The position numbers and the translations under genes were made by a program. From the sequence record NC_055708.1: a stretch of DNA of 64,000 nt; one strand, given 5' to 3'. This DNA comes from Enterobacteria phage ATK47. Under the pieces are notes generated by a model. The model did not search any database. It saw nothing but the letters and a program-made list of their open reading frames with translations, and had not been told where the DNA came from. Positions 45,162-62,053 of this stretch are shown piece after piece (within the stretch, counting starts at the first letter, position 1; every line of letters begins with the position of its first letter).

Positions 45162-47873
45162 ATGAAAGAATTTTACTTAACGGTTGAACAGATTGGTGAT
45201 TCAATTTTTGAACGTTACATCGATTCTAATGGCCGTGAACGTACTCGTGAAGTAGAATATAAACCATCACTGTTTGCTCATTGTCCAGAAAGTCAGGCTA
45301 CTAAATATTTCGATATCTACGGTAAACCTTGTACTCGTAAGTTGTTCGCTAATATGCGTGATGCCTCCCAATGGATTAAACGCATGGAAGATATCGGACT
45401 TGAAGCACTTGGCATGGACGATTTCAAATTGGCGTATTTGTCTGACACTTATAACTATGAAATCAAATATGACCATACAAAAATTCGTGTGGCTAACTTC
45501 GACATCGAAGTAACATCCCCGGATGGGTTCCCTGAGCCGTCACAAGCAAAACATCCGATTGATGCTATCACCCATTATGACTCAATTGACGACAGGTTCT
45601 ACGTATTTGATCTATTGAATTCTCCATATGGCAATGTAGAAGAATGGTCTATCGAAATTGCGGCTAAGCTTCAAGAACAAGGTGGTGATGAAGTTCCATC
45701 TGAAATTATCGATAAAATCATTTATATGCCGTTTGATAATGAAAAAGAATTATTGATGGAATATCTCAACTTCTGGCAACAGAAAACTCCTGTCATTTTG
45801 ACTGGATGGAACGTTGAGTCATTTGATATTCCATATGTGTATAATCGAATCAAGAATATTTTTGGTGAATCCACAGCAAAACGGTTGTCGCCACATCGTA
45901 AAACTCGTGTTAAAGTTATCGAAAACATGTATGGTTCTCGTGAAATCATTACATTGTTCGGTATCTCTGTTCTTGATTACATTGACCTTTACAAAAAATT
46001 CTCTTTCACAAACCAACCGTCGTATTCTCTGGATTACATTTCAGAATTTGAATTGAACGTTGGTAAACTGAAATATGACGGCCCTATTTCTAAGCTTCGT
46101 GAAAGCAATCACCAACGATATATTTCTTATAACATTATCGACGTATATCGTGTATTGCAAATTGATGCTAAACGCCAGTTCATTAACTTGAGCTTGGACA
46201 TGGGTTATTATGCTAAGATACAGATTCAATCTGTGTTTAGCCCAATTAAAACATGGGATGCTATTATTTTTAATAGCCTTAAAGAGCAGAACAAGGTGAT
46301 TCCACAAGGTCGTTCTCACCCGGTTCAACCTTATCCTGGCGCTTTTGTTAAGGAACCTATTCCAAATCGATACAAATATGTAATGAGTTTCGACCTTACA
46401 TCTCTGTATCCAAGTATTATTCGCCAAGTGAATATTAGCCCAGAAACAATAGCAGGAACGTTTAAAGTAGCTCCATTGCATGATTATATTAACGCAATCG
46501 CTGAACGTCCTTCAGATGTGTACAGTTGCTCTCCTAACGGCATGATGTATTATAAAGACCGTGACGGTGTAGTTCCAACTGAAATCACTAAGGTCTTTAA
46601 TCAACGTAAAGAACATAAAGGTTATATGCTTGCGGCTCAACGTAATGGTGAAATAATTAAAGAGGCGTTGCATAATCCTAATCTTTCTGTTGACGAACCA
46701 TTAGATGTTGATTATCGTTTCGACTTCACTGACGAGATTAAAGAAAAGATTAAAAAGTTGTCTGCTAAATCTCTTAATGAAATGTTGTTTAGAGCTCAAC
46801 GTACTGAAGTTGCAGGTATGACTGCACAAATTAACCGTAAATTGCTTATCAACTCGCTTTATGGTGCACTTGGTAACGTATGGTTCCGTTATTACGATTT
46901 GCGTAATGCTACTGCAATCACAACATTCGGGCAAATGGCTTTACAGTGGATTGAACGTAAAGTTAATGAATATCTGAATGAAGTTTGTGGTACAGAAGGT
47001 GAAGCTTTCGTTCTTTATGGTGATACAGACTCTATTTACGTATCTGCTGATAAAATTATCGATAAGGTTGGTGAATCTAAATTCCGTGATACCAACCATT
47101 GGGTAGACTTCTTAGATAAGTTTGCACGTGAACGTATGGAACCAGCTATTGATAAAGGTTTCCGTGAAATGTGTGAATACATGAACAATAAACAACACTT
47201 AATGTTCATGGACCGAGAAGCTATCGCTGGTCCTCCGCTCGGTTCTAAAGGTATTGGTGGATTCTGGACCGGTAAGAAACGTTATGCATTAAACGTGTGG
47301 GATATGGAAGGAACTAGATACGCTGAGCCTAAACTCAAAATCATGGGTCTCGAAACACAGAAATCTTCGACCCCTAAAGCAGTACAGAAAGCTCTTAAAG
47401 AATGTATTCGTCGTATGCTTCAAGAAGGTGAAGAATCATTACAAGAATATTTTAAAGAGTTTGAAAAAGAATTCCGTCAATTGAATTATATTAGCATCGC
47501 GTCAGTATCTTCTGCGAATAACATTGCTAAATATGACGTTGGTGGATTCCCTGGTCCTAAATGCCCGTTCCATATTCGTGGAATTCTGACATATAACAGA
47601 GCTATCAAAGGTAATATTGATGCTCCACAAGTTGTAGAAGGTGAAAAAGTATATGTTCTGCCTTTACGTGAAGGAAACCCATTCGGTGATAAATGTATCG
47701 CATGGCCTTCTGGTACTGAAATCACAGATTTAATTAAAGACGACGTACTTCATTGGATGGACTACACTGTTCTCCTTGAGAAGACATTTATTAAACCACT
47801 TGAAGGATTCACATCAGCAGCGAAACTCGATTACGAGAAGAAAGCATCTCTGTTCGATATGTTCGATTTTTGA
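45162..47873 (+). CDS. 43: DNA polymerase gp43 (family B, with 3'-5' exonuclease)
   Basis: 903 aa; exo motif FDIEV; polymerase motifs SLYPSII, YGDTDS. Confidence 0.95.
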   Translation: MKEFYLTVEQIGDSIFERYIDSNGRERTREVEYKPSLFAHCPESQATKYFDIYGKPCTRKLFANMRDASQWIKRMEDIGLEALGMDDFKLAYLSDTYNYEIKYDHTKIRVANFDIEVTSPDGFPEPSQAKHPIDAITHYDSIDDRFYVFDLLNSPYGNVEEWSIEIAAKLQEQGGDEVPSEIIDKIIYMPFDNEKELLMEYLNFWQQKTPVILTGWNVESFDIPYVYNRIKNIFGESTAKRLSPHRKTRVKVIENMYGSREIITLFGISVLDYIDLYKKFSFTNQPSYSLDYISEFELNVGKLKYDGPISKLRESNHQRYISYNIIDVYRVLQIDAKRQFINLSLDMGYYAKIQIQSVFSPIKTWDAIIFNSLKEQNKVIPQGRSHPVQPYPGAFVKEPIPNRYKYVMSFDLTSLYPSIIRQVNISPETIAGTFKVAPLHDYINAIAERPSDVYSCSPNGMMYYKDRDGVVPTEITKVFNQRKEHKGYMLAAQRNGEIIKEALHNPNLSVDEPLDVDYRFDFTDEIKEKIKKLSAKSLNEMLFRAQRTEVAGMTAQINRKLLINSLYGALGNVWFRYYDLRNATAITTFGQMALQWIERKVNEYLNEVCGTEGEAFVLYGDTDSIYVSADKIIDKVGESKFRDTNHWVDFLDKFARERMEPAIDKGFREMCEYMNNKQHLMFMDREAIAGPPLGSKGIGGFWTGKKRYALNVWDMEGTRYAEPKLKIMGLETQKSSTPKAVQKALKECIRRMLQEGEESLQEYFKEFEKEFRQLNYISIASVSSANNIAKYDVGGFPGPKCPFHIRGILTYNRAIKGNIDAPQVVEGEKVYVLPLREGNPFGDKCIAWPSGTEITDLIKDDVLHWMDYTVLLEKTFIKPLEGFTSAAKLDYEKKASLFDMFDF

Positions 47874-47913
47874 TATAATGCCATGGACGGTAAACTAATT
47901 AAATGAGAGAAAT

Positions 47914-48549
47914 ATGAAAACTACACCAATCACTATCGCTATTGACGCAATCGTAAAACAAGCTTCTTCTTTGGCTACTATGGCCAAAGTAATTAGTCAA
48001 AACCCTGCTCGTTATAATGCTATTCTAGAAACTCTTCGACGCCCAGGACTTAGTAATTATGAAAGCCGAGTAATTATTACAGGTGTTGGTAAGAATGCTA
48101 ATATTGCAACTAAAGCTTCTGAGACATTTGCTTCACTCGGTATCCCAAGTATGTACTTGAACACCGGGCATTATTCTCACGGTGATGCAGGATTCATTGC
48201 GCCTAATGATGTGTTGATTCATATTAGTCGTTCTGGTAAGACTGAAGAAATGATAGGTGTTGCTAAACATCTTCGTATGATTCGTCCTCAGGTTAAACAG
48301 ATTCTGTTACATTGTAACCCTGACATTCCACAAGAATACGAAGCTCTTTTTGATTATACGTTCTGTACCGGTATCGCGGTAGAAGTTGACGAGAACTCTT
48401 TAGCTCCGACAATGTCCACTACATTGTTGTTAGCGCTTATCGATACGTTCGCTATCAACCTTTCGTCTGAACGCGGATTTACCTCTAATGACTTCCTTAA
48501 GTTCCACCCTGGTGGTGCACTAGGTGCCATGTTACGAGGCGAGCAATGA
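47914..48549 (+). CDS. SIS-domain sugar-phosphate isomerase (KdsD/GutQ arabinose-5-phosphate isomerase-like, no CBS domains)
   Basis: ITGVGKNANIATK, HGDAGFI, ISRSGKTEE, LAPTMSTT and FHPGGALG match SIS-domain isomerase motifs. Confidence 0.7.
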   Translation: MKTTPITIAIDAIVKQASSLATMAKVISQNPARYNAILETLRRPGLSNYESRVIITGVGKNANIATKASETFASLGIPSMYLNTGHYSHGDAGFIAPNDVLIHISRSGKTEEMIGVAKHLRMIRPQVKQILLHCNPDIPQEYEALFDYTFCTGIAVEVDENSLAPTMSTTLLLALIDTFAINLSSERGFTSNDFLKFHPGGALGAMLRGEQ

Positions 48550-48689
48550 AAGCAATAACAATAGGACTTTTACTATTGATGCTTGTCATGACTATCTACT
48601 GGAGCTTAACGGCTCCAGTAATGATTCCGACTCTTATAATCGGATGGATTATGATTGGACTACAAGCAAAGTATGAATGCTTTAACTAG
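48546..48689 (+). CDS. small hydrophobic protein (47 aa, below ORF-track cutoff)
   Basis: translated by hand; ATGA overlap with upstream stop. Confidence 0.3.
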   Translation: MKAITIGLLLLMLVMTIYWSLTAPVMIPTLIIGWIMIGLQAKYECFN

Positions 48690-48730
48690 AATAGTGTACA
48701 ATACACCTACTTACCAATGAGGACCACAAC

Positions 48731-50416
48731 ATGAAAAAAGCTGTTATTCTTGGTGCTGGACTGGCAACTCGTTTGTATCCAATAACGCATCATATTCCTA
48801 AGGTGCTTGTTAACTATAAACAAGACACTATTCTGAGCAATTTGTATACAATTTATTCTGACCTTGGCGCAGATGAAATTATTGTAGTAGTTCATTCAAA
48901 ATTTGCTGAAACTGTTCGAGCTTATTGCGAGCAAGAAGGGTTCAATGCGACTATTCGTACAGTTGATGAAGCGTATGGTTCTGCTTATGCTCTTGCTAAA
49001 TTATACAAAGATTTAGATGGCCATAATGTAATTGTTAACTGGTGTGATATTATTCCTGATTTTGGTTCATGGTCTTGGAATGTTAACGCAATCTATGTTA
49101 AGGGTGATGAATGTCGATATAATTTCGATGGTGAAAATATCACTAACGTAGGTTCAACAGGCGGTAATGTTGTAGGAATTTATCAGTTCAAAGACTGGGA
49201 ATTCTACATGGGTTCTACTGATGAGGAAATTCACGAATACTGCAAAGGACGTGATTTCGTAGAATTCCTTTACGGCAGTGCATTCAATAAATCAGAGCTT
49301 ATGAATCTAATTGATTTAGGTGATATGCCTAAACTTGAAAAAGCTCATGAAGTTCGTGAACTTAATCGTAGTTTTAATGCAGTTGAAATTGGCGAAGAAA
49401 CTGTAACTAAATTCGCGTTAACCGAACAAGGTCGAGCTCTTCAGAAAGATGAGATTTCATGGTATTTGAAAGTGAAATCAGATTCAGTCCCTCAGTTAGT
49501 TTCTGTTAATGAAAATAACTTTGAAATGGAACGTATTAAAGGTAAGCCGGCATTTGAATATATTAAATCCAAATCAAGTCTTGCTCGTCCACAAATTGTT
49601 GATGCAATTTTAGATGCACTGAAATTCAGCACAGACACTTATTTTGTAAGTCCTGAAACTGTTCGCCGTGATTTCACTAAAGAGTTCTATACGAAAGTTA
49701 TTGATCGTTGTGAAAGCATTCAGCCATTGATTGATTCATTTGGTAAAATCACACACGTGAACTACACTAAGATTGGACGTCTGAAGCCAATGTTGAAACA
49801 AGCTTTAGAACATCTTATTCGTTATCATAACCGTTCTCAGGGACAGTACTCTGTTATTCACGGTGATCCGAACTTCAGTAATACTATGATTACTGATAAC
49901 GGCGAAGTCAAGTTTATCGACCCTCGTGGATATTTTGGTGAAACCAAGATTTACGGACCAAAATTGTATGATGAAGCTAAAGTGCTTTATGCTGTTTCAG
50001 GTTATGATGAATTCAACGCTAATCCGACCTGGGGCCAGTTTATTATTGATGAAACAACTTGTAATGTGACTATTAACATCAATCCATTAGTTTACAAATA
50101 TGGAAAGATGAGTTCGTTTAACGAGTATCATCATTTGGCAGTAGCAATTATCTGGATTGCATTAGGTGGTTATTTCAAGAATAATCCACTTAAAGCGGTA
50201 GCCGCATATTATAAAGGTATGGAACTTCTGACTAAGCAATTACGTAACATGGGCCGTGTACTTCAAGATGGCTCTATTAGTTATGACGTAGCAGAACCTG
50301 TAACGGCTACTCTGATTACAAAAAATCCTGGTAAATGGGTACTAACTGATAAAGAAACTGGTGTTTCCTATCGTCCAATCGGTGGCGATATCACTCATCA
50401 ATGGGAACGAATCTAA
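48731..50416 (+). CDS. bifunctional sugar-1-phosphate nucleotidyltransferase (N-terminal) / anomeric sugar kinase (C-terminal)
   Basis: N-terminal AVILGAGLATRL as in LicC/RmlA-type nucleotidyltransferases; C-terminal HGDPNFSNTMI...FIDPRG as in choline/aminoglycoside/AmgK kinases. Confidence 0.7.
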   Translation: MKKAVILGAGLATRLYPITHHIPKVLVNYKQDTILSNLYTIYSDLGADEIIVVVHSKFAETVRAYCEQEGFNATIRTVDEAYGSAYALAKLYKDLDGHNVIVNWCDIIPDFGSWSWNVNAIYVKGDECRYNFDGENITNVGSTGGNVVGIYQFKDWEFYMGSTDEEIHEYCKGRDFVEFLYGSAFNKSELMNLIDLGDMPKLEKAHEVRELNRSFNAVEIGEETVTKFALTEQGRALQKDEISWYLKVKSDSVPQLVSVNENNFEMERIKGKPAFEYIKSKSSLARPQIVDAILDALKFSTDTYFVSPETVRRDFTKEFYTKVIDRCESIQPLIDSFGKITHVNYTKIGRLKPMLKQALEHLIRYHNRSQGQYSVIHGDPNFSNTMITDNGEVKFIDPRGYFGETKIYGPKLYDEAKVLYAVSGYDEFNANPTWGQFIIDETTCNVTININPLVYKYGKMSSFNEYHHLAVAIIWIALGGYFKNNPLKAVAAYYKGMELLTKQLRNMGRVLQDGSISYDVAEPVTATLITKNPGKWVLTDKETGVSYRPIGGDITHQWERI

Positions 50417-50802
50417 TGCACCGTGTAGAAAACATGCTTAATCTTTGTTTTGATGTCGATGATTGTATAACAGAGTGGAATAACAATCGTGATTATGTGA
50501 ACTTCAAACCAGACGTCGAAATGGTGACCGCCATTAATGCCCTGTATGATGCAGGGCATACCATAACGCTTTACACTGCTCGTGGTATGAAGTCGGTAGG
50601 TCCTGGTCGTATAGCAATTGACATTCTCCCAAGTCTGATTCAGAACTTGGAAAACATTGGTTTGAAGTACCATAATTTGCTAACACATAAACCAGTATAT
50701 GATTGGATTATCGACGACAAAGCTATGCGTCCTGACGAATTCAAAGCTCTTATGAATAAAGGCGAATTCGAAACATTTAAATCGTATAAACCGAATCTAT
50801 AA
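50416..50802 (+). CDS. HAD-superfamily phosphatase
   Basis: motif I FDVDDCIT; small cap-less HAD architecture; TAATG overlap with upstream gene. Confidence 0.55.
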   Translation: MHRVENMLNLCFDVDDCITEWNNNRDYVNFKPDVEMVTAINALYDAGHTITLYTARGMKSVGPGRIAIDILPSLIQNLENIGLKYHNLLTHKPVYDWIIDDKAMRPDEFKALMNKGEFETFKSYKPNL

Positions 50803-50853
50803 TAATTTAAGTAAGACCTGCAAAAAAAAACCCATCGCATCAATTAACGCGAG

Positions 50854-52023
50854 ATGCAAAAAATGAATACTTTTAAAATCGGAACGAATTTTGATTTAGC
50901 TCTTCTTGATAAAATCGTAGAGCTCAATAAAACTTATCCTAATAGCTTGATAAATGAAGTATACGGCTCTACAAGAGAAATGGCTTTTGTAGCAGCCAGA
51001 CCTGATTTTAGGCTTCCTGACGTTGACAAAAAGATGTTAGAAGACTACGTTAAACGTTGTAACGAATTAGGTATTTGCTTTAACTATACACTCAACACGA
51101 TAAATCCTGGTTCAAAAAGAGAACTAGTTGAGTGGAAGAAGAAAGCTATTCAGGATTATGTTCAGTATCTTTGGTCAATAGGCGTATGGCGTATTACTAT
51201 CGCTAACCCTGTTGTTATGGAAATTGTTCGTGAAGTCAATAAAGACATTGAGATTGAAGTTTCAACAATTCTACATGTTGATGCTGTAACTCAAATCAAA
51301 TACTTGCACGACCAATATAACATCAAAAAAGTCTGTTGCGGAATTCATAAGAACCGTTCAGTTTCTTTCCTGAAGCGTGCAGCAGAGTTTTGCAATAAGA
51401 ACAATATAATATTTGAAGTTCTTGTAAATGAGTTCTGTTCTAATGCTGGTAAAGGGTATACAACACATTGTAGCTATCGTGACTCTTGCTATATTTTCCA
51501 TAGTACTGATGTTACCGCTGATGATGCTAAATCCTTAAATGGATATCCTATGCAGCACTGTATTAAAGCTCGTGATACAGACCCATTTAACTGGCTGAGA
51601 ACTCGTTTTGTTCGTCCTCAAGATTTGAAACTTTATAATGATATTGGTATCACTCAATTCAAAGTTTCAGGACGTACAGGTAGCACAGACTACATTTTGA
51701 AAGTTCTTGAAGCATACGCTTCTGAAAAGTTTGAAGGTAATTTGTTAGAACTGTGGAAGCCTTTAGAGACTATTTTCACTCTTGAAAATGAGACTGAGTT
51801 TTCACATACAGTAAATATTGAAACCTCATTGTTAGACGGTTTTTTAGAAAAAAGGTGGTTCAGACATCCAGATTTCGATTGTGCTAATGAAATCTGCGGG
51901 ACGACGTGTACATATTGTGAAAGATATTATAAACGTCAGTTATCTAAAAATGGGTTATCAGAAAACTCTATATCTATTATTGATATAACTAACTCTGATG
52001 ACGCTTTGAGGTACCCGGAATGA
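50854..52023 (+). CDS. hypothetical protein, Cys-rich C-terminus (candidate sugar-modifying or transferase enzyme)
   Basis: 389 aa ORF inside the island; CANEICGTTCTYC cluster; function not recognisable. Confidence 0.45.
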   Translation: MQKMNTFKIGTNFDLALLDKIVELNKTYPNSLINEVYGSTREMAFVAARPDFRLPDVDKKMLEDYVKRCNELGICFNYTLNTINPGSKRELVEWKKKAIQDYVQYLWSIGVWRITIANPVVMEIVREVNKDIEIEVSTILHVDAVTQIKYLHDQYNIKKVCCGIHKNRSVSFLKRAAEFCNKNNIIFEVLVNEFCSNAGKGYTTHCSYRDSCYIFHSTDVTADDAKSLNGYPMQHCIKARDTDPFNWLRTRFVRPQDLKLYNDIGITQFKVSGRTGSTDYILKVLEAYASEKFEGNLLELWKPLETIFTLENETEFSHTVNIETSLLDGFLEKRWFRHPDFDCANEICGTTCTYCERYYKRQLSKNGLSENSISIIDITNSDDALRYPE

Positions 52024-52259
52024 TTTCTAGAAAAACTTTTAACCACCAACTTAATGAAGAGATTTTGACTATAAAACTGAACACTAACGAACAAATTCTT
52101 AAAAAGGCCCTTATGGGCCTGTTTGAAACCAAAGCGGCTAAAGTGATTAAAGAACCTGTTCAATTGGAATACTACACTGATGCATTCCTTCATAGTGTTC
52201 TTGGAAGTATAGATTCTGAAGCTTTACGTTATATCAACATTGCCAAGAAATTCAAATAA
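52020..52259 (+). CDS. hypothetical protein
   Basis: 79 aa ORF, ATGA overlap. Confidence 0.4.
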   Translation: MISRKTFNHQLNEEILTIKLNTNEQILKKALMGLFETKAAKVIKEPVQLEYYTDAFLHSVLGSIDSEALRYINIAKKFK

Positions 52260-52301
52260 GCTTTACGAATTGAGTATATAATAAATTGTATTGAGGTAAA
52301 C

Positions 52302-53018
52302 ATGGGAAAACATAACACAATGAAATATATCAAAGCCGCAGATTTTCAAGCCGCATTTAAAGCAGTCAATCGTGAAATTTTAGAAAATCCTGAATTCGTA
52401 ACTGATTCTCGTATTGGACGTTGTAATGAAATCGGGTCCATGACAGTAGTTGTTGACAATCCATCATCATTCAAAATGACCGACCCACGTATTAACCGCA
52501 TCTCTTATGAATATGCCGAAGACTTCTGGAAGTTTATGATTTCTGGTGGTACTGATGCAGAAGAAGCGTTTAAGGCATATCCTAATGTCGCTAAATTTAT
52601 TTCTAAACCTAAATCAGACGCTTTGCCGGCGAACTTCAACACTTTCTATGGTCCTCGCATTGCGGCCCAATTACCAGCTCTTCTAAAAGAACTTAAAGAG
52701 AAACCTAACTCTCGAAGAGTTGTGTTCCAAATTCTAGAAAGTTCTGATCAGGCTTTGCTTGATTCGGACGAAACACTTGAATATCCATGTACTGACTCAG
52801 TGACTTATTATATTCGCGATGGTAAGCTTTATACCCACTGTCATATGCGTTCTCAGAACTGTGCTGTTGTTATGCAGTTGGATTTTTATCTCCAAGGAAA
52901 ATTACTTCATTATATCGCTAACGAATGCGGCGTAGAAGTTGGTGATTATACTCATACCATGGTAAGTGCCCATGTGTTTGAACGTGATTTTGATTATGTT
53001 AAAGGATTCCTTGACTAA
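52302..53018 (+). CDS. thymidylate-synthase-family deoxypyrimidylate hydroxymethylase (gp42-like, divergent)
   Basis: KPNSRRVVF, nucleophile motif YPCTDSVTYYIRD, MRSQN...QLDFY align to remembered T4 dCMP hydroxymethylase NPDSRR / MCTNTVQYLIRD / MRSND...RNDY. Confidence 0.7.
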   Translation: MGKHNTMKYIKAADFQAAFKAVNREILENPEFVTDSRIGRCNEIGSMTVVVDNPSSFKMTDPRINRISYEYAEDFWKFMISGGTDAEEAFKAYPNVAKFISKPKSDALPANFNTFYGPRIAAQLPALLKELKEKPNSRRVVFQILESSDQALLDSDETLEYPCTDSVTYYIRDGKLYTHCHMRSQNCAVVMQLDFYLQGKLLHYIANECGVEVGDYTHTMVSAHVFERDFDYVKGFLD

Positions 53019-53917
53019 TGGCTATTTTCCGCGTACCAATCTTGAGTATGCGGTCTTATGAAACTGGACAGTATGCTATCCTTAAGGATGGCAACTTCCA
53101 ACTTCATTTGCACCGTGCTAATCCAGGTGATGTGATTACATATCCACGTAATGCATCTGATATTAAAGAATGTGAACGTCTTTTCCCGGAATTTAAGTTT
53201 GTTCCATTATGGTATAAAGATAACGCGTATAACACTCGTAAATATTTCTGGTCTGAAAATGAATTTGTGGTTGATTCATTAATTGCTTATTATGATTGTG
53301 ATTTTCTAATAACAGATATCACTGGATATGACGGCGCTTTTGATGTAGAATTCAATTTCAATATCACTGCAGACCCTAATAAACCACGTTTTTATATTGA
53401 TGAATTCTTAAAAACCGATATGTTGTCGGTTAATCGTTCACTTCAAACTACTGTGTTGAATGAACGTCAAAAAGAAGTGCTGGTTAACGCCGGTGCAGAT
53501 GGTAATAAGATTATCGTAACGCAGAAAGTTATACGTCCTTCCATCATGCAGCGTCTTGTAGGTGATTTGGCTCCTATTCATGTAGATGGTATTTTTCATC
53601 CATTTCGAATTAGTGATCCGTGTTATCATTTTGAACAAGTGGTTGAATGTGCAATTCAATTAGGTCAACCGCTTTATATAACTGATCCAAATAATAGCTT
53701 TGACAGAAATAAGTATCCTGAAGAAGCGCTGATTCGAATTTTTAAACCAACTAAAACTGAGTACTATCAAATTCTTAAAGGACGTCCGAAGATTCAATAT
53801 TTCGAAAATCCTGAAGAAGTATTCCATCCAGGTCTTGGTGAGTTCATCTACTTTAATGCTTTAATTTCTTCGCCGTATAATATACCTAAATACGAAGATG
53901 TCGTAATCGAGGAATAA
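53018..53917 (+). CDS. hypothetical protein at T4 beta-gt position (candidate DNA glycosyltransferase)
   Basis: 299 aa ORF, position only; no motif recognised. Confidence 0.4.
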   Translation: MAIFRVPILSMRSYETGQYAILKDGNFQLHLHRANPGDVITYPRNASDIKECERLFPEFKFVPLWYKDNAYNTRKYFWSENEFVVDSLIAYYDCDFLITDITGYDGAFDVEFNFNITADPNKPRFYIDEFLKTDMLSVNRSLQTTVLNERQKEVLVNAGADGNKIIVTQKVIRPSIMQRLVGDLAPIHVDGIFHPFRISDPCYHFEQVVECAIQLGQPLYITDPNNSFDRNKYPEEALIRIFKPTKTEYYQILKGRPKIQYFENPEEVFHPGLGEFIYFNALISSPYNIPKYEDVVIEE

Positions 53918-53918
53918 A

Positions 53919-54467
53919 ATGGCTAAAATTATTTTAGTAGATGGCCCAGATAATGCTGGTAAAACAACTTTCATTAATGACATAATGGAAATTAGTGAAA
54001 GATATGTAAAGATTGATTTCCCTAAACGAACAGTTGATGGACGTTTCGATGTTAAGTCTCGAAATGAAGTTGGCTGTTTCGAAACGATGTTGAATTATTT
54101 AGACCCTACTAAGATTTATCTGTTAGACCGTGGATATATTAGTAACTGGGTTTATGGACGTATTCGACAAGATGCGGACTCGGTTCTTGACGTTTATGAA
54201 CAGGACTATGTTCGTCTTTGCCAAAACCATGATGTGTTCACAATTATTTTAACACGTAACGAAATGACTGAAAGTTTTGAAGACGACCTTATTACTTTGT
54301 CTTCATTCGGTTTTAATACAGTCATTTCACATTTTGAAGAGTTTGCAATTCATAACAAAATCCAAACGTATCAATTACTTAATCATGATGGTGCTAACAA
54401 AGTTATAGGATTTAATGCAAGCGAACGTAATTATTTGATTACAGAAATTATCAAATGGGCTCGTTAA
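53919..54467 (+). CDS. thymidylate-kinase-like P-loop nucleotide kinase
   Basis: P-loop VDGPDNAGKTT and LDRGYISNWVYG (DRY-type motif) resemble dTMP kinase family. Confidence 0.55.
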   Translation: MAKIILVDGPDNAGKTTFINDIMEISERYVKIDFPKRTVDGRFDVKSRNEVGCFETMLNYLDPTKIYLLDRGYISNWVYGRIRQDADSVLDVYEQDYVRLCQNHDVFTIILTRNEMTESFEDDLITLSSFGFNTVISHFEEFAIHNKIQTYQLLNHDGANKVIGFNASERNYLITEIIKWAR

Positions 54468-54565
54468 GAGCCATTTAAAGTTTTAAATGCTGTATAACCA
54501 TTAGTATATAATTGTCTTATCTTTTAAACATGAGTAAAATATAATGATGCCTATGGAAAAATACA

Positions 54566-55738
54566 ATGTCTGATTTAAAATCTCGTCTGATTAAAGCTTC
54601 TACTTCTAAAATGACTGCCGACTTGACCAAGTCTAAGCTCTTTAATAATCGTGATGAAGTCCCTACTCGTATTCCGATGTTGAATATTGCACTAGGTGGT
54701 GCTCTGAATGCAGGATTGCAATCAGGCTTGACTATTTTTGCTGCACCTTCTAAACACTTTAAAACATTGTTTGGGCTGACTATGGTTGCAGCGTATATGA
54801 AGAAATATAAAGATGCAATCTGTTTGTTTTATGACTCGGAATTTGGTGCTTCAGAATCTTATTTTCGTTCAATGGGTGTTGATTTAGACCGTGTAGTTCA
54901 CACACCAATTCAGTCCGTCGAACAACTTAAAGTTGATATGACTAATCAGCTTGACGCTATTGAACGCGGTGATAAAGTTATTATCTTTATCGATTCAATC
55001 GGTAATACTGCATCTAAGAAAGAAACCGAAGATGCATTGAACGAGAAAGTTGTAGGTGATATGTCTCGTGCTAAGGCACTTAAATCTCTGTTCCGTATTG
55101 TGACTCCTTATCTGACTATTAAAGATATTCCGTGTGTTGCAATCAACCATACAGCAATGGAAATCGGCGGACTATATCCTAAAGAGATTATGGGCGGTGG
55201 TACAGGTATTCTTTACTCTGCTAACACTGTATTCTTTATCTCTAAACGTCAGGTTAAAGAAGGTACAGAATTGACAGGTTATGACTTCACGTTGAAAGCA
55301 GAAAAATCTCGTACTGTTAAAGAAAAATCTACTTTCCCGATCACGGTTAATTTTGATGGCGGTATTGATCCATTCAGTGGCTTGTTAGAAATGGCAACTG
55401 AAATTGGATTTGTTGTTAAGCCTAAAGCTGGTTGGTATGCTCGTGAATTCCTTGACGAAGAAACAGGCGAAATGATTCGTGAAGAAAAATCATGGCGTGC
55501 TAAAGCTACTGATTGTGTAGAATTCTGGGGGCCGTTGTTTAAACACAAACCTTTCCGAGATGCAATTGAAACTAAATATAAACTAGGTGCTATCTCTTCT
55601 ATTAAAGAAGTTGATGACGCTGTTAACGACCTTATTAATTGCAAAGCAACAACTAAAGTTCCGGTTAAAGCTTCTGATGCTCCGTCTGCAGCAGATATAG
55701 AAAACGACCTTGACGAAATGGAAGATTTCGATGAATAA
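54566..55738 (+). CDS. uvsX: recombinase UvsX (RecA-like)
   Basis: 390 aa; MSDLKSRLIKAS...; Walker A FAAPSKHFKT; near-identical to remembered T4 UvsX. Confidence 0.95.
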   Translation: MSDLKSRLIKASTSKMTADLTKSKLFNNRDEVPTRIPMLNIALGGALNAGLQSGLTIFAAPSKHFKTLFGLTMVAAYMKKYKDAICLFYDSEFGASESYFRSMGVDLDRVVHTPIQSVEQLKVDMTNQLDAIERGDKVIIFIDSIGNTASKKETEDALNEKVVGDMSRAKALKSLFRIVTPYLTIKDIPCVAINHTAMEIGGLYPKEIMGGGTGILYSANTVFFISKRQVKEGTELTGYDFTLKAEKSRTVKEKSTFPITVNFDGGIDPFSGLLEMATEIGFVVKPKAGWYAREFLDEETGEMIREEKSWRAKATDCVEFWGPLFKHKPFRDAIETKYKLGAISSIKEVDDAVNDLINCKATTKVPVKASDAPSAADIENDLDEMEDFDE

Positions 55739-56072
55739 TCTTGATGATTTAAATCTAGAAATCGTTGATGAATCCCCTTCTTCGGAAGGGGAAGACATTC
55801 GCAAAGAACGAGTGTTTAATGAATCTCTTAAAATTATCCGTTCAGCAATGGAAAATGTCATTCAAGAGATTCTGATTACACTTGAAGACGGTTCTCATCA
55901 TATAGTCTATATTACAAAACTAGACTGGGTTGATGGTAAAATCGTAATGGACTTTGCAGTTCTTGACCAGGACAGAAAAGCAGAACTTGCACCGCATGTT
56001 GAAAAATGTGTTACAATGCAGGTACAACAAGCTTTTAATGAACGAACCAAGAAAAAATTTAAATTCTTTTAA
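55731..56072 (+). CDS. 40: gp40 head vertex assembly chaperone
   Basis: 113 aa ORF between uvsX and 41; synteny. Confidence 0.6.
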   Translation: MNNLDDLNLEIVDESPSSEGEDIRKERVFNESLKIIRSAMENVIQEILITLEDGSHHIVYITKLDWVDGKIVMDFAVLDQDRKAELAPHVEKCVTMQVQQAFNERTKKKFKFF

Positions 56073-56081
56073 GGAGTTATC

Positions 56082-57524
56082 GTGGTAGAAATTATTTTGT
56101 CTCATCTAGTATATGACCAGGCTTATTTTTCTAAGGTCTGGCCTTATATGGATTCTGAGTATTTTGAGCGTGGACCGGCAAAAAACGTCTTTAAAATTAT
56201 AAAGAACCACGTTAACGAATATAATGCAATGCCATCTATCAATGCATTAAAGGTGGCTTTAGATAACAGTTCTTTAACTGAAGCCGAATATAAAGGAACT
56301 TCAGACCTAATTGAAAAATTGGCTGACACTCCTGAAGACCACGAATGGTTGGTTAAAGAAACTGAGAAATATGTCCAGCAAAAAGCGATGTATAATGCTA
56401 CGTCCAAAATCATTGAGATTCAGACTAATGCTGAACTACCTCCAGAACAACGTAACAAGAAAATGCCTGACGTAGGAGCTATTCCTGATATTATGCGTCA
56501 AGCACTTTCAATTTCGTTTGATAGTTATGTTGGTCATGACTGGATGGAAGACTATGAAGCACGCTGGCTTTCTTATCTAAATAAAGCACGTAAGGTCCCG
56601 TTCAAATTAAACATTCTGAATAAAATCACCAAAGGTGGTGCAGAAACAGGTACACTGAACGTTTTAATGGCCGGTGTTAACGTTGGTAAATCTTTAGGCC
56701 TTTGTTCACTTGCTGCAGATTATCTTCAAACAGGACATAATGTTCTTTATATTTCCATGGAAATGGCTGAAGAAGTTTGTGCTAAGCGTATAGACGCAAA
56801 CATGCTTGACGTATCACTCGATGATATCGACGATGGTAACGTATCTTATGCTGAATATAAAGCCAAGATGGAAAAATGGCGTTCAAAAACAACATTAGGA
56901 CGTTTAGTAGTTAAACAGTATCCTACTGGTGGAGCTAATGCTAATACATTTCGTGCATTGCTTAATGAGTTAAAACTTAAGAAGAACTTTGTGCCATCTG
57001 TAATCATGGTTGATTACTTAGGTATTTGTGGGTCTTGTCGTATCAGAGTTTACACTGAAAATAGCTACACATTAGTTAAAGCTATCGCAGAAGAACTTCG
57101 TGCATTAGCAGTAGAATCTGAAACAGTTCTATGGACTGCAGCTCAAGTAGGACGTGCAGCCTGGGATGCTTCAGACATGAACATGAGTGATATCGCAGAA
57201 TCAGCAGGTTTACCAGCAACAGCAGATTTCATGTTGGCCGTAATTGAAACCGAAGAACTTGCACAAGCTGAACAACAACTTATCAAACAAATCAAATCAC
57301 GATACGGTGATAAGAATAAGTGGAATAAATTCCTGATGGGTGTACGTAAAGGCAATCAGAAATGGGTTGAGATTGAGCAAGAAGGCATGAACACACCTAA
57401 CACAGTAAATGAAAACGCAGGTGCTCAGATGCGTCAGGCAGAGGTGAATCGCACGGAACGCGTAGGTAAAGCCAAAGCAACACGTGCTGACCTAGATAGC
57501 TTAGCCAATGAGTTAAAATTTTAA
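56082..57524 (+). CDS. 41: replicative DNA helicase gp41 (DnaB-like), GTG start
   Basis: MVEIILSHL...; Walker A GVNVGKSLG; near-identical to remembered T4 gp41. Confidence 0.95.
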   Translation: MVEIILSHLVYDQAYFSKVWPYMDSEYFERGPAKNVFKIIKNHVNEYNAMPSINALKVALDNSSLTEAEYKGTSDLIEKLADTPEDHEWLVKETEKYVQQKAMYNATSKIIEIQTNAELPPEQRNKKMPDVGAIPDIMRQALSISFDSYVGHDWMEDYEARWLSYLNKARKVPFKLNILNKITKGGAETGTLNVLMAGVNVGKSLGLCSLAADYLQTGHNVLYISMEMAEEVCAKRIDANMLDVSLDDIDDGNVSYAEYKAKMEKWRSKTTLGRLVVKQYPTGGANANTFRALLNELKLKKNFVPSVIMVDYLGICGSCRIRVYTENSYTLVKAIAEELRALAVESETVLWTAAQVGRAAWDASDMNMSDIAESAGLPATADFMLAVIETEELAQAEQQLIKQIKSRYGDKNKWNKFLMGVRKGNQKWVEIEQEGMNTPNTVNENAGAQMRQAEVNRTERVGKAKATRADLDSLANELKF

Positions 57525-57531
57525 TAAAAAA

Positions 57532-57550
57532 GGAGACTTCGGTCTCCTTT
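57532..57550 (+). terminator. rho-independent terminator (ggagac ttcg gtctcc TTT)
   Basis: UUCG hairpin after gene 41. Confidence 0.6.
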
Positions 57551-57554
57551 CGGG

Positions 57555-57590
57555 GTTTACATCTTCCTCTAGGCATGATATGATGTACTT
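57555..57590 (+). promoter_or_regulatory. early promoter (GTTTACA, TATGAT)
   Basis: consensus elements. Confidence 0.45.
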
Positions 57591-57613
57591 ACACCAACCA
57601 AGAGGAAAACATT

Positions 57614-57988
57614 ATGAATATGTCTCAAGCAATTTTTACTGCAATCACCGAAAACACAACTGTTGAAGTAGTTTCTCCGCTGGCAACCTACGTTATTCTT
57701 GCTCCTAAATCTATTGTATCTCGTATGGAAAACATGGGCAAACGTATCGTACAAATCGTTGGAGCCGGAAATCAAAAACTTGATTATCTGCGAACCATCA
57801 AAGCTTATGAACATTTCCAACTCGAAAAAGGTTCTCCTATCCAGGTAGAACTCGTAAATGGTGATATCGTTCGAGCAATGTTCCATCATTTCTATGCATT
57901 GAATGACCCATCTAAAGCGGTTCGTTTAATTGCATACGACGCAAACCAAAACGAAATCAACGCAGATATATCTAAATTACGTTTTTAA
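57614..57988 (+). CDS. hypothetical protein
   Basis: 124 aa ORF with SD AAGAGGAAAA. Confidence 0.45.
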   Translation: MNMSQAIFTAITENTTVEVVSPLATYVILAPKSIVSRMENMGKRIVQIVGAGNQKLDYLRTIKAYEHFQLEKGSPIQVELVNGDIVRAMFHHFYALNDPSKAVRLIAYDANQNEINADISKLRF

Positions 57989-58038
57989 GTTTACTTCTCC
58001 AGTAGTTGTGTTATTATAGACCTATCAACTACTGGAGA
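57989..58038 (+). promoter_or_regulatory. early promoter with 10 bp palindrome ccagtagttg/caactactgg
   Basis: GTTTAC, TATTAT. Confidence 0.5.
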
Positions 58039-58043
58039 ACAAA

Positions 58044-58361
58044 ATGAAAACCATCGATTGTAAAGCAGAATTTAAGATTTTTTATCACGGTTCAAGTAGT
58101 TCAGCTAACATCGAAAACATGCTTTGTCCTCCTGAAGAAACAGGAGTTCTGTCTGAAACTGGACGTAAGAAAAACTTGAATCGTGTATTCTTTACTGAAG
58201 ATATCGGTTTAGCAAAGATTTATGCAGGACGAGCAGCACGCTCTTATGGAGGTGAACCACGTCTCTATCGAGTAATTTCTCCGGTAGACGTAGTTCAAAT
58301 GAATAATACTAAAGGTGCTACAGTTTATCACGCTGAATGGGCATTTTGCGAGGAAATATGA
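58044..58361 (+). CDS. hypothetical protein with YHGSS motif (possible NAD-binding/ADP-ribosyltransferase-like fold)
   Basis: motif-level resemblance only. Confidence 0.4.
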   Translation: MKTIDCKAEFKIFYHGSSSSANIENMLCPPEETGVLSETGRKKNLNRVFFTEDIGLAKIYAGRAARSYGGEPRLYRVISPVDVVQMNNTKGATVYHAEWAFCEEI

Positions 58362-58546
58362 GCAAATTAACTAAAGTTACTTTTATCGGTTGGTTTAAAA
58401 GCGGCGAGATGTTCACTAAAGATATCATGCTATCAGGTGATCGCGAAGAAATCGAGTGGGTTACGGTACAACTTGCTGAAGTGAACAATGCATTAGTTAA
58501 AGCATTTATTAATGACGAGAAAGTTTTCGAAGCAGATTTTCGATAA
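58358..58546 (+). CDS. dmd: Dmd-like antitoxin (discriminator of mRNA degradation)
   Basis: VTFIGWFKSGEMFTKDIM...AEVNNALVKAFINDEKVFEADFR resembles remembered T4 Dmd; located next to gene 41. Confidence 0.65.
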   Translation: MSKLTKVTFIGWFKSGEMFTKDIMLSGDREEIEWVTVQLAEVNNALVKAFINDEKVFEADFR

Positions 58547-58559
58547 TTTTAAAATAACT

Positions 58560-58600
58560 GTTTACAAGCACCACATACTGTGTTACTATCTTTCTATCAA
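58560..58600 (+). promoter_or_regulatory. early promoter
   Basis: GTTTACA, TGTTACTAT. Confidence 0.45.
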
Positions 58601-58617
58601 CTACAGAGGAAATTGAA

Positions 58618-58986
58618 ATGAAAAAATTAATCGCTTTAGCAATGGTATTTGGATTAACCGGATGTGGTGCCCATGGCTTTATCCCTAATAACGTCGGCCA
58701 ATTGATTTACAATCCGAATGTTAAACAGTACGACCAACCTAAAGTTGAAGTGGAAGACCCGGTTACTGTAGGTAATCGAATGATTCAAGCTGATGCCCAT
58801 GCTCAACGTTATCGTGATTCTGATACTGTAGCATTGTCAAAAGAACAACGCGTTAAAGAACATTGCTTACAGGCTACTGAAATCGCATTCATTCGCTATG
58901 TTGAAACAACTGGTAAAGAGCCTTCCCAGAAACAAATCGCGAATAACTACGTCCAGTGTATTGAACGTTTAAACAAATTTAATTAA
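58618..58986 (+). CDS. lipoprotein (lipobox LTGC)
   Basis: signal peptide MKKLIALAMVFGLTGC. Confidence 0.5.
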   Translation: MKKLIALAMVFGLTGCGAHGFIPNNVGQLIYNPNVKQYDQPKVEVEDPVTVGNRMIQADAHAQRYRDSDTVALSKEQRVKEHCLQATEIAFIRYVETTGKEPSQKQIANNYVQCIERLNKFN

Positions 58987-58989
58987 TTG

Positions 58990-59025
58990 GTTTACACCAA
59001 AGTTAAAATAAGATACTATAAACAT
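58990..59025 (+). promoter_or_regulatory. early promoter
   Basis: GTTTACA, GATACTAT. Confidence 0.45.
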
Positions 59026-59047
59026 AACAAATCAAGAGGAAATTAAC

Positions 59048-59296
59048 ATGGAATTATTCGTAGCTAGTTCAGTAGCAGTTTTAATCGCAGGTATTGGTTC
59101 AATCATCATTTACATGTTGCCTTGGGTAATCGCACTTATTCGTGGCACAAAAAGCACAACAGCAATCTTCTTTGTATCTTTGCTCTTTAACTGGACGATG
59201 GTTGGTTGGATTGGAACTTTAATTTGGTCTATCGTTGCCGAAAAGAAATCTGCTCAGCAGCCTCAACAAGTAATTATTATTCGCGAAAAAGAATAA
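59048..59296 (+). CDS. imm: superinfection-immunity (Imm)-like membrane protein
   Basis: two TM segments; PWVIALIRGTKSTTAIFFVSLLFNWTMVGWIGTLIWS resembles the Imm family pattern. Confidence 0.5.
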   Translation: MELFVASSVAVLIAGIGSIIIYMLPWVIALIRGTKSTTAIFFVSLLFNWTMVGWIGTLIWSIVAEKKSAQQPQQVIIIREKE

Positions 59297-59300
59297 ACTT

Positions 59301-59340
59301 GTTTACATTATAGATGGACTATAGTATAGTAGTCCTATCA
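59301..59340 (+). promoter_or_regulatory. early promoter with palindrome ggacta/tagtcc
   Basis: GTTTACA, TATAGT. Confidence 0.5.
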
Positions 59341-59359
59341 AATCAACTAAGGAGTTAAA

Positions 59360-59653
59360 ATGAAAAAGTTATCATTGGCAGCAATCTTACTCGCAGTATC
59401 ATGTGCACCAGCTCCAGTTACAGCAGGTTATGATAAAGACCTCTGTGAGTGGTCAATGACTGCAAATCAAGAAGATGTTGAACATCAAATCTTCGCTGAT
59501 ATCATGAACATTACTAAACGAGACCGTCCTAATATGGTTAATAAAGTTGTTGAACAACTTAAGTCTGGCGGTATCATGCAGTACAACTATGTTTTGTATT
59601 GTGACCCTAATTTCGATAACAAAGATATCGTAACCGAAATCACAGGTGAATAA
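59360..59653 (+). CDS. sp: Spackle (periplasmic inhibitor of gp5 lysozyme, superinfection exclusion)
   Basis: 97 aa with signal peptide; GYDKDLCEWSMTA...SGGIMQYNYVLYCD matches remembered T4 Sp. Confidence 0.7.
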   Translation: MKKLSLAAILLAVSCAPAPVTAGYDKDLCEWSMTANQEDVEHQIFADIMNITKRDRPNMVNKVVEQLKSGGIMQYNYVLYCDPNFDNKDIVTEITGE

Positions 59654-59654
59654 T

Positions 59655-60305
59655 ATGATTTATTACATGCACAAAAACGCGCCATTTAAATATGGTAAAT
59701 TTCCTAATGCACAATGTTATAATATAACGCCGAATGAAAATAATAATGGATACCATATTGGTGTAATTTTTGTAATTGTTAAAGATAACGAAATCGTTGC
59801 ATGGGCAGATTTTAAAGGTACAACGTATGACGTTAATCCAGTTCCGTTCACATATTATAATTTAATGGATTTAGCATACGACTATAATTGGTTTACTCAT
59901 GATACTCTAGCACATGTTGAAGGCGTAGGATTTGACATCTCTTATTCTAGTTATTCATTATGTCCTATGAGCCGAGCTCACGGTAAAGATGTATCATATC
60001 TTTCAATTCGGAAACGTGTAAACTTTAAACGTAGTACAGAGTATGTTGGTGGACTCTTTGTTAAAGATAATAAAATAACTCGTATTAGTTATCCTTTAAG
60101 TGTAGGTCAAAAAGATGTTGATGTTGATTTAGACTTAACTGAAAGTAACATTAATCGTATTGCTTCTGTATATTTTGATATCGATGAAAAAATTGTAGTG
60201 TGTGGATACGAATTACCACCTGAAGAAAAGGCTGAAACAATTGAAGTCGAATTAGAAATTTCTGTTGATGACCAAATATTTAATGCATTTATGAATCGAG
60301 GTTAA
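59655..60305 (+). CDS. hypothetical protein
   Basis: 216 aa ORF from ATG at 59655. Confidence 0.5.
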   Translation: MIYYMHKNAPFKYGKFPNAQCYNITPNENNNGYHIGVIFVIVKDNEIVAWADFKGTTYDVNPVPFTYYNLMDLAYDYNWFTHDTLAHVEGVGFDISYSSYSLCPMSRAHGKDVSYLSIRKRVNFKRSTEYVGGLFVKDNKITRISYPLSVGQKDVDVDLDLTESNINRIASVYFDIDEKIVVCGYELPPEEKAETIEVELEISVDDQIFNAFMNRG

Positions 60306-60306
60306 A

Positions 60307-60504
60307 ATGACTACTGCAATTTGCACTGGTTCTAAAATTAGTGTTTTTACAAGTTTTGAAGATTATGAAGTTGTTTCAAAACACCAATGCCATATTAGCG
60401 TAAAAGCTAATGATGGCGTAATTTGGAATATTCCACACTATGAAGACACTACATATGAAGTCACAGATGCGAACGGTGATAAAGCGATCTTTGTGATTGA
60501 TTAA
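60307..60504 (+). CDS. hypothetical protein
   Basis: 65 aa ORF. Confidence 0.4.
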   Translation: MTTAICTGSKISVFTSFEDYEVVSKHQCHISVKANDGVIWNIPHYEDTTYEVTDANGDKAIFVID

Positions 60505-60523
60505 ATATACTCAGGAGGTACCT

Positions 60524-60991
60524 ATGGGTATTATTAACACTGCAATAGATTCAGTTTATGCATATAAGTTTATTCGACTAATGCAAAAACCTTTTACCGA
60601 ATGGAAAGCGTACGAAGCCAAAATCATCGACGAACGTGGAAGTGTTCTTAAACGTCCTTCCACTCCTGAAGAGAAAGCGGCTTATACACCTTTTCATGCT
60701 TCAGTTCGTTCAATGAAGCGAATGATGAGCACTGTTCCGGGTCTTAATGGAATGGCCTCAATGATGTCTGCCTGGAGTGCTGTAGCATCCCGCTATAACA
60801 TTACAGAAGAACAACAGAAAGAAATATTTAAAGAACTCCCTTTATTTGAGGATATGGTTGCTGGTGATTCAGGTGGCAGCCCTCAAGCTATTGCATCAGG
60901 AACAACTACAGGTGCAGTCGTAAATAAAGGTCCAGAACAAATTCCTTCCAAGAAAAGAAAGCGAATTAAAGTAAATATTAATAAGTTGTGA
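60524..60991 (+). CDS. hypothetical protein
   Basis: ORF from ATG at 60524 after SD AGGAGG. Confidence 0.45.
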   Translation: MGIINTAIDSVYAYKFIRLMQKPFTEWKAYEAKIIDERGSVLKRPSTPEEKAAYTPFHASVRSMKRMMSTVPGLNGMASMMSAWSAVASRYNITEEQQKEIFKELPLFEDMVAGDSGGSPQAIASGTTTGAVVNKGPEQIPSKKRKRIKVNINKL

Positions 60992-61030
60992 TATGATGGC
61001 CTTATTAATTTAAGGCCTCTGGAGAATACT

Positions 61031-62053
61031 ATGGCTGAATGGATAGATAATGAATTTGCTTATCGTGCGTTTTCTCACCTCCCTCGTTTTAGACAAATCA
61101 ATAATTCAAGCACATTTAAATTAACGTTTCGTTGTCCAGTTTGTGGCGACTCTCAGACAGATGCAATGAAAGCCCGCGGATGGTATTATGGTGGTACTCC
61201 AGGTAATGTGCATTGCTATAACTGTCAGTATCATAATACAATTTCCGGATACTTAAAAGAGTATGATGAAGAGCTTTATCGCGAGTATCTAATGGAAGTT
61301 CGTAAAGAAAAAGTTAGAATGGAACCAAAGATTGAAAAGGTTCCTGAACATAAACCAGAACCGGAGAAAAAGACTATAAATTCTTTGCCGTCTTGTTCTC
61401 GTCTGGACAAGCTGCCTGAAGAGCATCCTATTGTGAAATATGTTAAGTCTCGGTGTATTCCTAAAGAATCGTGGAACAGATTATGGTTCACATTAGAATG
61501 GCCTAAATTGGTCAACAAGATTCAACCTGGTACGTATAAGAAAGAGATTCCCGAGCCACGTTTAGTGATTCCTATTTTTAATAAAGATGGGAAGGCCGAG
61601 TCATTCCAAGGACGTGCACTTCGTAAAGATGCTCCTCAGAAATATATCACTATTAAAGCGTTTGAGTCTGCAACAAAAATTTATGGTGTTGAACGTGTTA
61701 AGGAAGGAGACGTCTGGGTAATGGAAGGCCCTATTGATAGTTTATTCATACCCAATGCAATCGCTATTACAGGCGGCTCAATAGATTTAGATGTGGTACC
61801 ATTTAAAGAACGTCGGGTATGGGTAATGGATAATGAACCTAGGCATCCAGATACTATAGCTCGCATGAAGCGATTAGTTGATGCAGGCGAACGTGTCATG
61901 TTCTGGGACCGAGCTCCGTGGAGTTCAAAGGATGTGAATGATATGGTAATGAAAGAAAATGCAACACCACAAGAAATTTTAGAATATATGAAACAGAATA
62001 TTTCAAGTGGGTTGCATGCTAAAATGAGATTATCTCGTTATTCGAAGATTTAA
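61031..62053 (+). CDS. 61: DNA primase gp61
   Basis: Zn ribbon CPVCGDS...CYNC; TOPRIM-like region; near-identical N-terminus to remembered T4 gp61. Confidence 0.9.
   Translation: MAEWIDNEFAYRAFSHLPRFRQINNSSTFKLTFRCPVCGDSQTDAMKARGWYYGGTPGNVHCYNCQYHNTISGYLKEYDEELYREYLMEVRKEKVRMEPKIEKVPEHKPEPEKKTINSLPSCSRLDKLPEEHPIVKYVKSRCIPKESWNRLWFTLEWPKLVNKIQPGTYKKEIPEPRLVIPIFNKDGKAESFQGRALRKDAPQKYITIKAFESATKIYGVERVKEGDVWVMEGPIDSLFIPNAIAITGGSIDLDVVPFKERRVWVMDNEPRHPDTIARMKRLVDAGERVMFWDRAPWSSKDVNDMVMKENATPQEILEYMKQNISSGLHAKMRLSRYSKI

Follow-up and report, generated by a model that had tools for sequence, protein, structure and literature searches.

Enterobacteria phage ATK47 is T4-like and belongs to the genus Mosigvirus (RB69 group). 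In its genome the superinfection immunity gene imm and the spackle gene sp stand side by side as the last two members of a three-gene run, imm.1-imm-sp. The explanation that we consider probable is that imm.1 and imm, early envelope genes predicted to have promoters of their own, form a cassette that has been relocated to this place. The stretch analyzed, 64,000 nucleotides of sequence record NC_055708.1, is referred to below as the window.

The initial annotation had placed an Imm-like gene and a spackle gene next to each other at 59048-59653, and the two ORFs were found at exactly those positions, on one strand and separated by 63 bp. The first of them, imm (59048-59296, + strand), encodes a predicted inner-membrane superinfection immunity protein of 82 aa. 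When its product was run against Imm profiles, it passed both Pfam PF14373 (Imm_superinfect; E=1.8e-15, 56.9 bits vs a cutoff of 27.9, with the match spanning the whole 42-position model) and PHROG 1039 ("immunity to superinfection"; E=1.2e-30). It is identical to T4 Imm at 53 of 83 positions (64%) over the full length, with a single one-residue gap (E=4e-37), is 100% identical to the annotated imm protein of RB69 (NC_004928), and retains all the 24 columns that are invariant across the Imm proteins of five genera. T4 Imm (83 aa) has the same length and the same two hydrophobic segments, which here cover residues 1-34 and 40-59 (Kyte-Doolittle windows of ≥1.6, a crude hydropathy measure rather than a topology prediction). 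The window holds imm as a single copy, and its product is the orthologue of T4 Imm and not merely an Imm-like protein.

It could be argued that the 82-aa protein belongs to the PF14373 family merely as a generic small membrane protein and has no exclusion role in this phage, as relatives with this domain occur in many unrelated viral contigs devoid of T4 markers (L026-L085), the family is common in prophages, and the only Imm-family protein whose function has been tested is that of T4. We regard this as very improbable: the 64% identity to T4 Imm also extends over the N- and C-terminal parts outside the domain (including the QVIIIREKE tail), the 24 invariant columns hold over five genera, the linkage to imm.1 is kept, and Imm is conserved at ≥95% identity in 152 genome records, with one additional record at 80 to 90%.

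The second ORF, sp (59360-59653, + strand), encodes a protein of 97 aa with a signal peptide (N-terminal hydrophobic segment at residues 4-24), and its matches identify it as Spackle, by T4 homology the periplasmic inhibitor of the gp5 tail lysozyme. It matched Pfam PF25676 (T4_Spackle) at E=9e-43 (145.2 bits vs a cutoff of 27) and the PDB Spackle chains 6x6o and 7cn6 at E=6.7e-40. The alignment to T4 Sp (67% identity) has no gaps and shows Cys29 and Cys81, the disulfide cysteines of T4 Sp (PMC7677548), to be retained. T4 Spackle (gp61.3) thus resembles the ATK47 protein in its length of 97 aa, its signal peptide, and both disulfide cysteines, and it likewise has 61.2/AdfA directly downstream, whereas the upstream neighbor of sp is 61.4 in T4 and imm here.

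The description of imm and sp as a compact exclusion pair turned out to be half of the picture: imm does adjoin sp, but imm.1 had been missed, and the cluster consists of three consecutive envelope genes, imm.1 > imm > sp. The gene upstream of imm (58618-58986, + strand) encodes a predicted lipoprotein of 122 aa of the Pfam family DUF5481 and is the homologue of T4 imm.1. Its product scored E=3.6e-9 and 37.4 bits against PF17578 (DUF5481; cutoff, 27), T4 Imm.1 itself scoring 239 bits, and was aligned with T4 Imm.1 over its full length (32% identity over 125 columns, E=1e-18). The protein has an N-terminal hydrophobic segment and a lipobox, LTGC at residues 13-16 (with Cys16) here and LAGC in T4, and two cysteines (83 and 114) are conserved. 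In T4, imm.1 immediately precedes imm, and the order imm.1 > imm is found in the window, in T4, and in the metagenomic contigs L091 and L092. The 122-aa ORF was also considered as a homologue of T4 61.4 and rejected in that role, since it showed no similarity to 61.4 and matched Imm.1.

The Imm.1 family is narrow, comprising 3 proteins by a word-indexed search and 9 by an exhaustive HMM search, the latter adding a few metagenomic variants. An AlphaFold2 model of Imm.1 built from a seven-sequence alignment was weak (mean pLDDT of 63, with confident helices at residues 75-120 only) and suggested a C-terminal helical bundle that holds both cysteines; a Foldseek search of the PDB with this model gave nothing below E=1, and a search of the PDB with the Imm.1 sequence gave no match. 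In one metagenomic variant (L092, 718-1086), 45% identical to the Imm.1 of the window, a phenylalanine replaces the lipobox cysteine (SLAGFSAHA), and this variant is more likely to be soluble in the periplasm than to be a lipoprotein. Predicted lipoproteins, each with two conserved cysteines, are also encoded directly after gene 43 in Serratia phage CHI14 (L086, 14783-15196), Kosakonia phage 305 (L088, 12667-13203), and Salmonella phage SEA1 (L005, 19526-19972). None of these three proteins matched DUF5481, but hhalign related them to the Imm.1 pair with 95% probability (E=3e-8), partly via the signal peptide. They may tentatively be taken as Imm.1 relatives, members of a wider Imm.1-like family tied to the post-43 position.

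The gene order in the window is 43 > sugar island > uvsX > 40 > 41 > orf124 > orf105 > dmd > imm.1 > imm > sp > 61.2 (AdfA) > orf65 > 61.1 > 61, while that in T4 is 43 > imm.1 > imm > 42 > b-gt > segA > uvsX > 40 > 41 > dmd > 61.4 > sp > 61.2 > 61.1 > 61. The latter agrees with the initial annotation, which assigned the T4 imm to the interval between 42 and 43 and sp to the vicinity of 61. The gene imm is therefore flanked by 43 and 42 in T4 but by 61.4/dmd and sp here, where its left flank is dmd (58358-58546, + strand) followed by imm.1 and its right flank, beyond sp, is 61.2/AdfA (anti-DarT factor A; 59655-60305, + strand; PF23813, E=2e-118; 65% identity to T4 61.2), the same right neighbor that sp has in T4. 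Both phages have the imm.1 lipoprotein gene as the upstream partner of imm and an early-type promoter context, which is a predicted one in the window. The small membrane ORF 42.1, which follows imm in T4, did not accompany imm to the Mosigvirus site.

The arrangement is not peculiar to ATK47. A 2.1-kb query around imm and sp was 100% identical to Mosigvirus phage ATK48 (KT184310), and the segment dmd-imm.1-imm-sp-61.2 was covered to at least 80% in 153 phage records. By tblastn, Imm.1 was found at ≥95% identity in 153 Mosigvirus records and at ca. 33% in about 500 records of the Tequatrovirus type. The imm.1-imm-sp arrangement is common to about 153 Mosigvirus genomes.

The names of imm and sp and their adjacency were already known from the GenBank records of RB69, ATK48, and many relatives; the ATK48 record, for instance, lists imm and a "spackle periplasmic protein" side by side, as in the window. 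The imm.1 homologue, however, is labeled only "putative membrane protein," "hypothetical," or "immunity" in the RB69 (NC_004928) and other Mosigvirus records, and in the literature that could be searched no text on the relocation of imm, on Imm.1, or on DUF5481 was found. What the present analysis adds is the membership of imm.1 in the cluster, the derived position of the cassette together with its precise site, and a Dhakavirus counterexample to the idea of displacement, all of which are taken up below. The ATK48 record also lacks a CDS for four clear genes, those of the NTP-transferase/kinase, the glycosyltransferase, AdfA/61.2, and 61.1 (48731-50416, 53018-53917, 59655-60305, and 60524-60991, respectively, in the window), and it places "repeat_region" features over the NTP-transferase/kinase gene.

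To locate imm across the T4-like phages, 29 marker proteins were mapped by tblastn onto annotated phage regions and 80 IMG/VR loci recovered with an Imm alignment, and the metagenomic contigs L091 and L092 were added through their Imm.1 relatives. Among the mapped loci with T4-like markers, imm lay directly after gene 43 in every lineage but Mosigvirus. The order was 43 > imm.1 > imm > 42 in the Tequatrovirus type (T4 and 5 loci), 43 > lipoprotein > imm > 42 > b-gt in Gelderlandvirus (SEA1 and 2 loci), 43 > imm > 42 > b-gt in a further group (L023-25), 43 > imm > uvsX in Gaprivervirus (4 loci), and 43 > imm > sugar island > uvsX in Dhakavirus (7 loci). One metagenomic contig, L091, had 43 > Imm.1-like > Imm > 42 > TAGT, and another, L092, had gp43 C terminus > Frd.3-like > Imm.1 > Imm > 42.1-like; L092 had been considered as a third context for imm.1-imm, but its first ORF proved to be the C terminus of gp43, which makes it a post-43 locus again. 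Among the mapped loci, imm was found beside sp only in the window, in ATK48, and in two Mosigvirus IMG/VR contigs. Since all the other imm-bearing T4-like lineages sampled have imm right after gene 43, parsimony suggests that the Mosigvirus position is the derived one and that the move went from 43 toward sp. Furthermore, since imm.1 lies just upstream of imm and the imm.1 > imm order of T4 is kept, the two genes appear to have moved as a unit. The unit that moved would be a promoter-bearing cassette of two genes.

The opposite polarity, with the place beside sp ancestral and the post-43 position of T4 derived, was also weighed. Both sites are hyperplastic and promoter rich, so movement either way is mechanistically possible. 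We nevertheless find this reading highly unlikely, as imm follows 43 in at least seven distinct lineages and stands beside sp in Mosigvirus alone, and nothing interrupts the 61.4/sp junction in T4 and Dhakavirus. The Mosigvirus Imm, moreover, nests with the T4 type: the protein of the window groups with those of T4 and L092 (62 to 64% identity), vs 48 to 52% to those of Dhaka, Gapriver, and Gelderland.

With the post-43 position taken as the original one, the site of arrival can be specified. In JK36-type Mosigviruses, dmd and imm.1 are separated by an extra 206 bp, which turned out to contain a homologue of 61.4 in two reading frames (L093, 552-760, in JK36; tblastn E=2e-15 and 1e-5). This remnant was found in JK36 and at least eight other Mosigviruses among the 40 matches listed. 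In the window (ca. 58546/58547), as in ATK48 and RB69, it is cleanly deleted, which makes it a within-genus indel polymorphism located at a promoter boundary. The JK36 order, dmd > frameshifted 61.4 > imm.1 > imm > sp, implies that the older Mosigvirus order included 61.4, and the alignment then places the cassette exactly at what is the 61.4/sp junction of T4, at an early-promoter box. A stretch of 19 nt 5' of imm.1, TTTTAAAATAACTGTTTAC, recurs unchanged in T4, where it comprises the end of 61.4 and the -35 box of the sp promoter, and the bases 3' of the -35 box of the imm.1 promoter resemble the T4 imm.1 promoter.

We then examined the promoters themselves. The motif GTTTAC-N17/18-TANNNT had 25 matches in the 64-kb window vs 1.95 expected, a ca. 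13-fold enrichment over shuffled sequences, and 24 of the 25 were on the + (coding) strand, while a scan of the window for generic sigma-70 promoters gave no enrichment over shuffles (18 vs 13.8). The motif marks the early transcription units of the 64-kb segment. Between 57.5 and 59.4 kb it precedes each of five consecutive small genes, orf124, orf105, imm.1, imm, and sp; the predicted T4-type early promoters of the last three, all on the + strand, are at 58560-58589 (GTTTAC-N18-TACTAT), 58990-59019, and 59301-59330. The promoter motif of imm lies 29 to 58 nt 5' of the start codon. T4 differs here, as it has no promoter between imm.1 and imm, the latter following 11 bp behind the former, whereas in the window imm has a predicted promoter of its own. 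The predicted promoter before imm resembles that of sp in T4, and the one before sp, particularly in its -10 region, resembles the T4 dmd promoter and not the T4 sp promoter, so the promoters appear to have been shuffled among the genes.

This organization recalls the promoter-mediated modular shuffling, known as PeSL (promoter-early stem-loop) shuffling, described for T4-type phages (PMC2839356, PMC4122927; Arbiol 2010, Comeau 2014). The likeness consists of small nonessential genes in a hyperplastic region, each bordered by strong early-promoter sequences, and of indels or cassette exchange at promoter boundaries (JK36 vs the window, and the 61.4/sp junction). The difference is that no terminator stem-loop was found 5' of the imm.1 or imm promoter, where the sequence folds no better than its shuffles (z = +1.0 and +0.15, respectively). 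A palindrome, GGACTATAGTATAGTAGTCC (59316-59337, + strand), with a hairpin fold of z = -2.2, encloses the -10 region of the sp promoter. The full PeSL-like shape of terminator and promoter is present only in the gene 41 unit that borders the small-gene cluster on its left (57529-57584, + strand), where the strong terminator hairpin GGAGAC-TTCG-GTCTCC (-22.8 kcal/mol, z = -2.5) is followed directly by an early promoter.

The course of events that we propose would have begun with imm.1-imm immediately 3' of gene 43, which encodes the DNA polymerase. The pair would then have moved, or have been reinserted, between 61.4 and sp in the ancestor of Mosigvirus, most likely through recombination in the early-promoter sequences that recur beside the small genes of this hyperplastic region, and later 61.4 would have decayed and been deleted in the lineage of the window. 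A crossover inside the repeated promoter sequence fits the junction. We infer it rather than read it off, because the shared sequence is largely a generic early-promoter/untranslated-region consensus, because the promoters appear to be shuffled among genes, and because those of imm.1 and imm are without the classic PeSL terminator hairpin. The consensus CTATCAACTAC is present before many genes, so the homology at the junction says little about exactly where the crossover took place.

The cassette could also have been acquired from another phage instead of being moved within one genome. This is possible, as the region is a local mosaic (45162-62053) that permits several histories. The gp43 and UvsX proteins are 83% and 90% identical to those of Dhakavirus vs 62% and 68% to those of T4, while for gp40, gp41, and gp61 the relation is reversed (83%, 85%, and 74% to T4 vs 44%, 68%, and 63% to Dhakavirus). 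Dhaka/Gapriver provides the closer relatives of orf105, dmd, and sp, and T4 that of imm.

The place that imm occupies in T4 is taken in the window by a sugar (cytosine arabinosylation) island (47914-54467, + strand), located between gene 43 (45162-47873) and uvsX (54566-55738). As the initial annotation had it, this 42/43 neighborhood is occupied by sugar genes. Their products are a SIS isomerase, an NTP-transferase/kinase, a phosphatase, a U32-like protein, a thymidylate-synthase-like "42," a glycosyltransferase, and a kinase. The island corresponds to the cytosine-arabinosylation cluster of RB69 (PMC6024577, PMC13326640), and the functions are given as assigned for RB69 (PMC13326640). Tequatroviruses and Tegunaviruses with the arabinosylation cluster have also been reported (PMC13326640, Fig. 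4). The "gene 42" of the window (52302-53018, + strand) is of the RB69 gp48 type and only 25 to 26% identical to T4 gp42. Enzymes of this type are reported to make 5-hydroxy-dCMP, not 5-hydroxymethyl-dCMP (PMC13326640, 2026), and for that reason the label "deoxycytidylate 5-hydroxymethyltransferase" in the ATK48 record is probably outdated.

It had also been suggested that the island displaced imm. In the form closest to that suggestion, acquisition of the island replaced the post-43 imm.1-imm segment, and the copy beside sp is one that survived or was rescued, relocation being a consequence of the replacement. The arrangement of the window is compatible with such an event, as the island begins 40 bp after gene 43 and no remnant of imm is left between them. 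The closest islands, those of Winklervirus CHI14, Tegunavirus TG1, and Kanagawavirus 305 (NTP-transferase/kinase, 66 to 73% identity; U32-like protein, 83%; gene order shared), are likewise found in phages with no imm after 43 or between 41 and 61, and in Serratia phage CHI14 no imm was detected within 1-91.9 kb. The similarity of the block from 43 to uvsX to Dhakavirus (83 to 90%), vs the T4-like gp40 and gp41 (83 to 85%), suggests a block exchange, possibly one of the entire block. On the other hand, seven loci of the Dhakavirus type carry imm directly after 43 and upstream of the sugar island; since the Dhakaviruses keep both, the island itself does not displace imm. A lipoprotein gene (the possible remote imm.1 relative mentioned above) separates 43 from the island in CHI14 and Kosakonia 305, and the island therefore need not abut gene 43. 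The order of events, finally, cannot be read from extant genomes. We thus hold replacement by the island to be a possible but unproven and rather unlikely cause of the move.

The functions expected of imm and sp are those of their T4 homologues. By analogy, Imm would alter the site of DNA injection at the inner membrane and so block the uptake of DNA from superinfecting T-even phages, and Sp would act in the periplasm, binding and inhibiting the lysozyme that an incoming phage carries on its gp5 tail spike. For T4, and for T4 only, Sp has been reported to inhibit this gp5 lysozyme domain allosterically by binding to it (PMC7677548); no experiments on RB69-type Imm or Sp were found in the literature that could be searched. 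Expressed from the predicted early promoters, Imm and Sp would establish superinfection exclusion within minutes of infection.

Whether Imm.1 takes part in this is a more speculative matter. The linkage of imm.1 to imm has outlived the translocation and persists in several divergent lineages despite an Imm.1 identity of only ca. 32%, and for these reasons Imm.1 can be pictured as a working partner of Imm. The genes imm.1-imm-sp may then form one envelope exclusion module with three layers, a lipoprotein (Imm.1), an inner-membrane protein (Imm), and a periplasmic lysozyme inhibitor (Sp). We put this forward tentatively and regard it as rather unlikely. The fast divergence of Imm.1 could reflect specificity in phage-phage conflict.

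Taken by itself the arrangement is of little consequence, an ordinary and already annotated one with a modest evolutionary story. It is, though, a clear case in which a cassette of two genes with flanking promoters has changed its place in T-even genomes, the comparison brings out that a cytosine-sugar island and imm are able to coexist next to gene 43, and the linkage of the lipoprotein Imm.1 to imm gives a reason to test whether Imm.1 has a role in superinfection exclusion.

One additional small gene of the cluster deserves mention. The product of orf105 (58044-58361, + strand; 105 aa) gave a faint, below-threshold Pfam hint of an Arr-ms rifampin ADP-ribosyltransferase (E=0.077) and no match in PDB or NCBIfam, the NCBIfam search having yielded no useful matches altogether. 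Its conservation in Dhaka-, Gapriver-, and Tegunavirus is 84 to 90%; T4 lacks the gene. The end of orf105 overlaps the start of dmd, and the gene lies 1.3 kb upstream of that of the anti-DarT factor AdfA (61.2).
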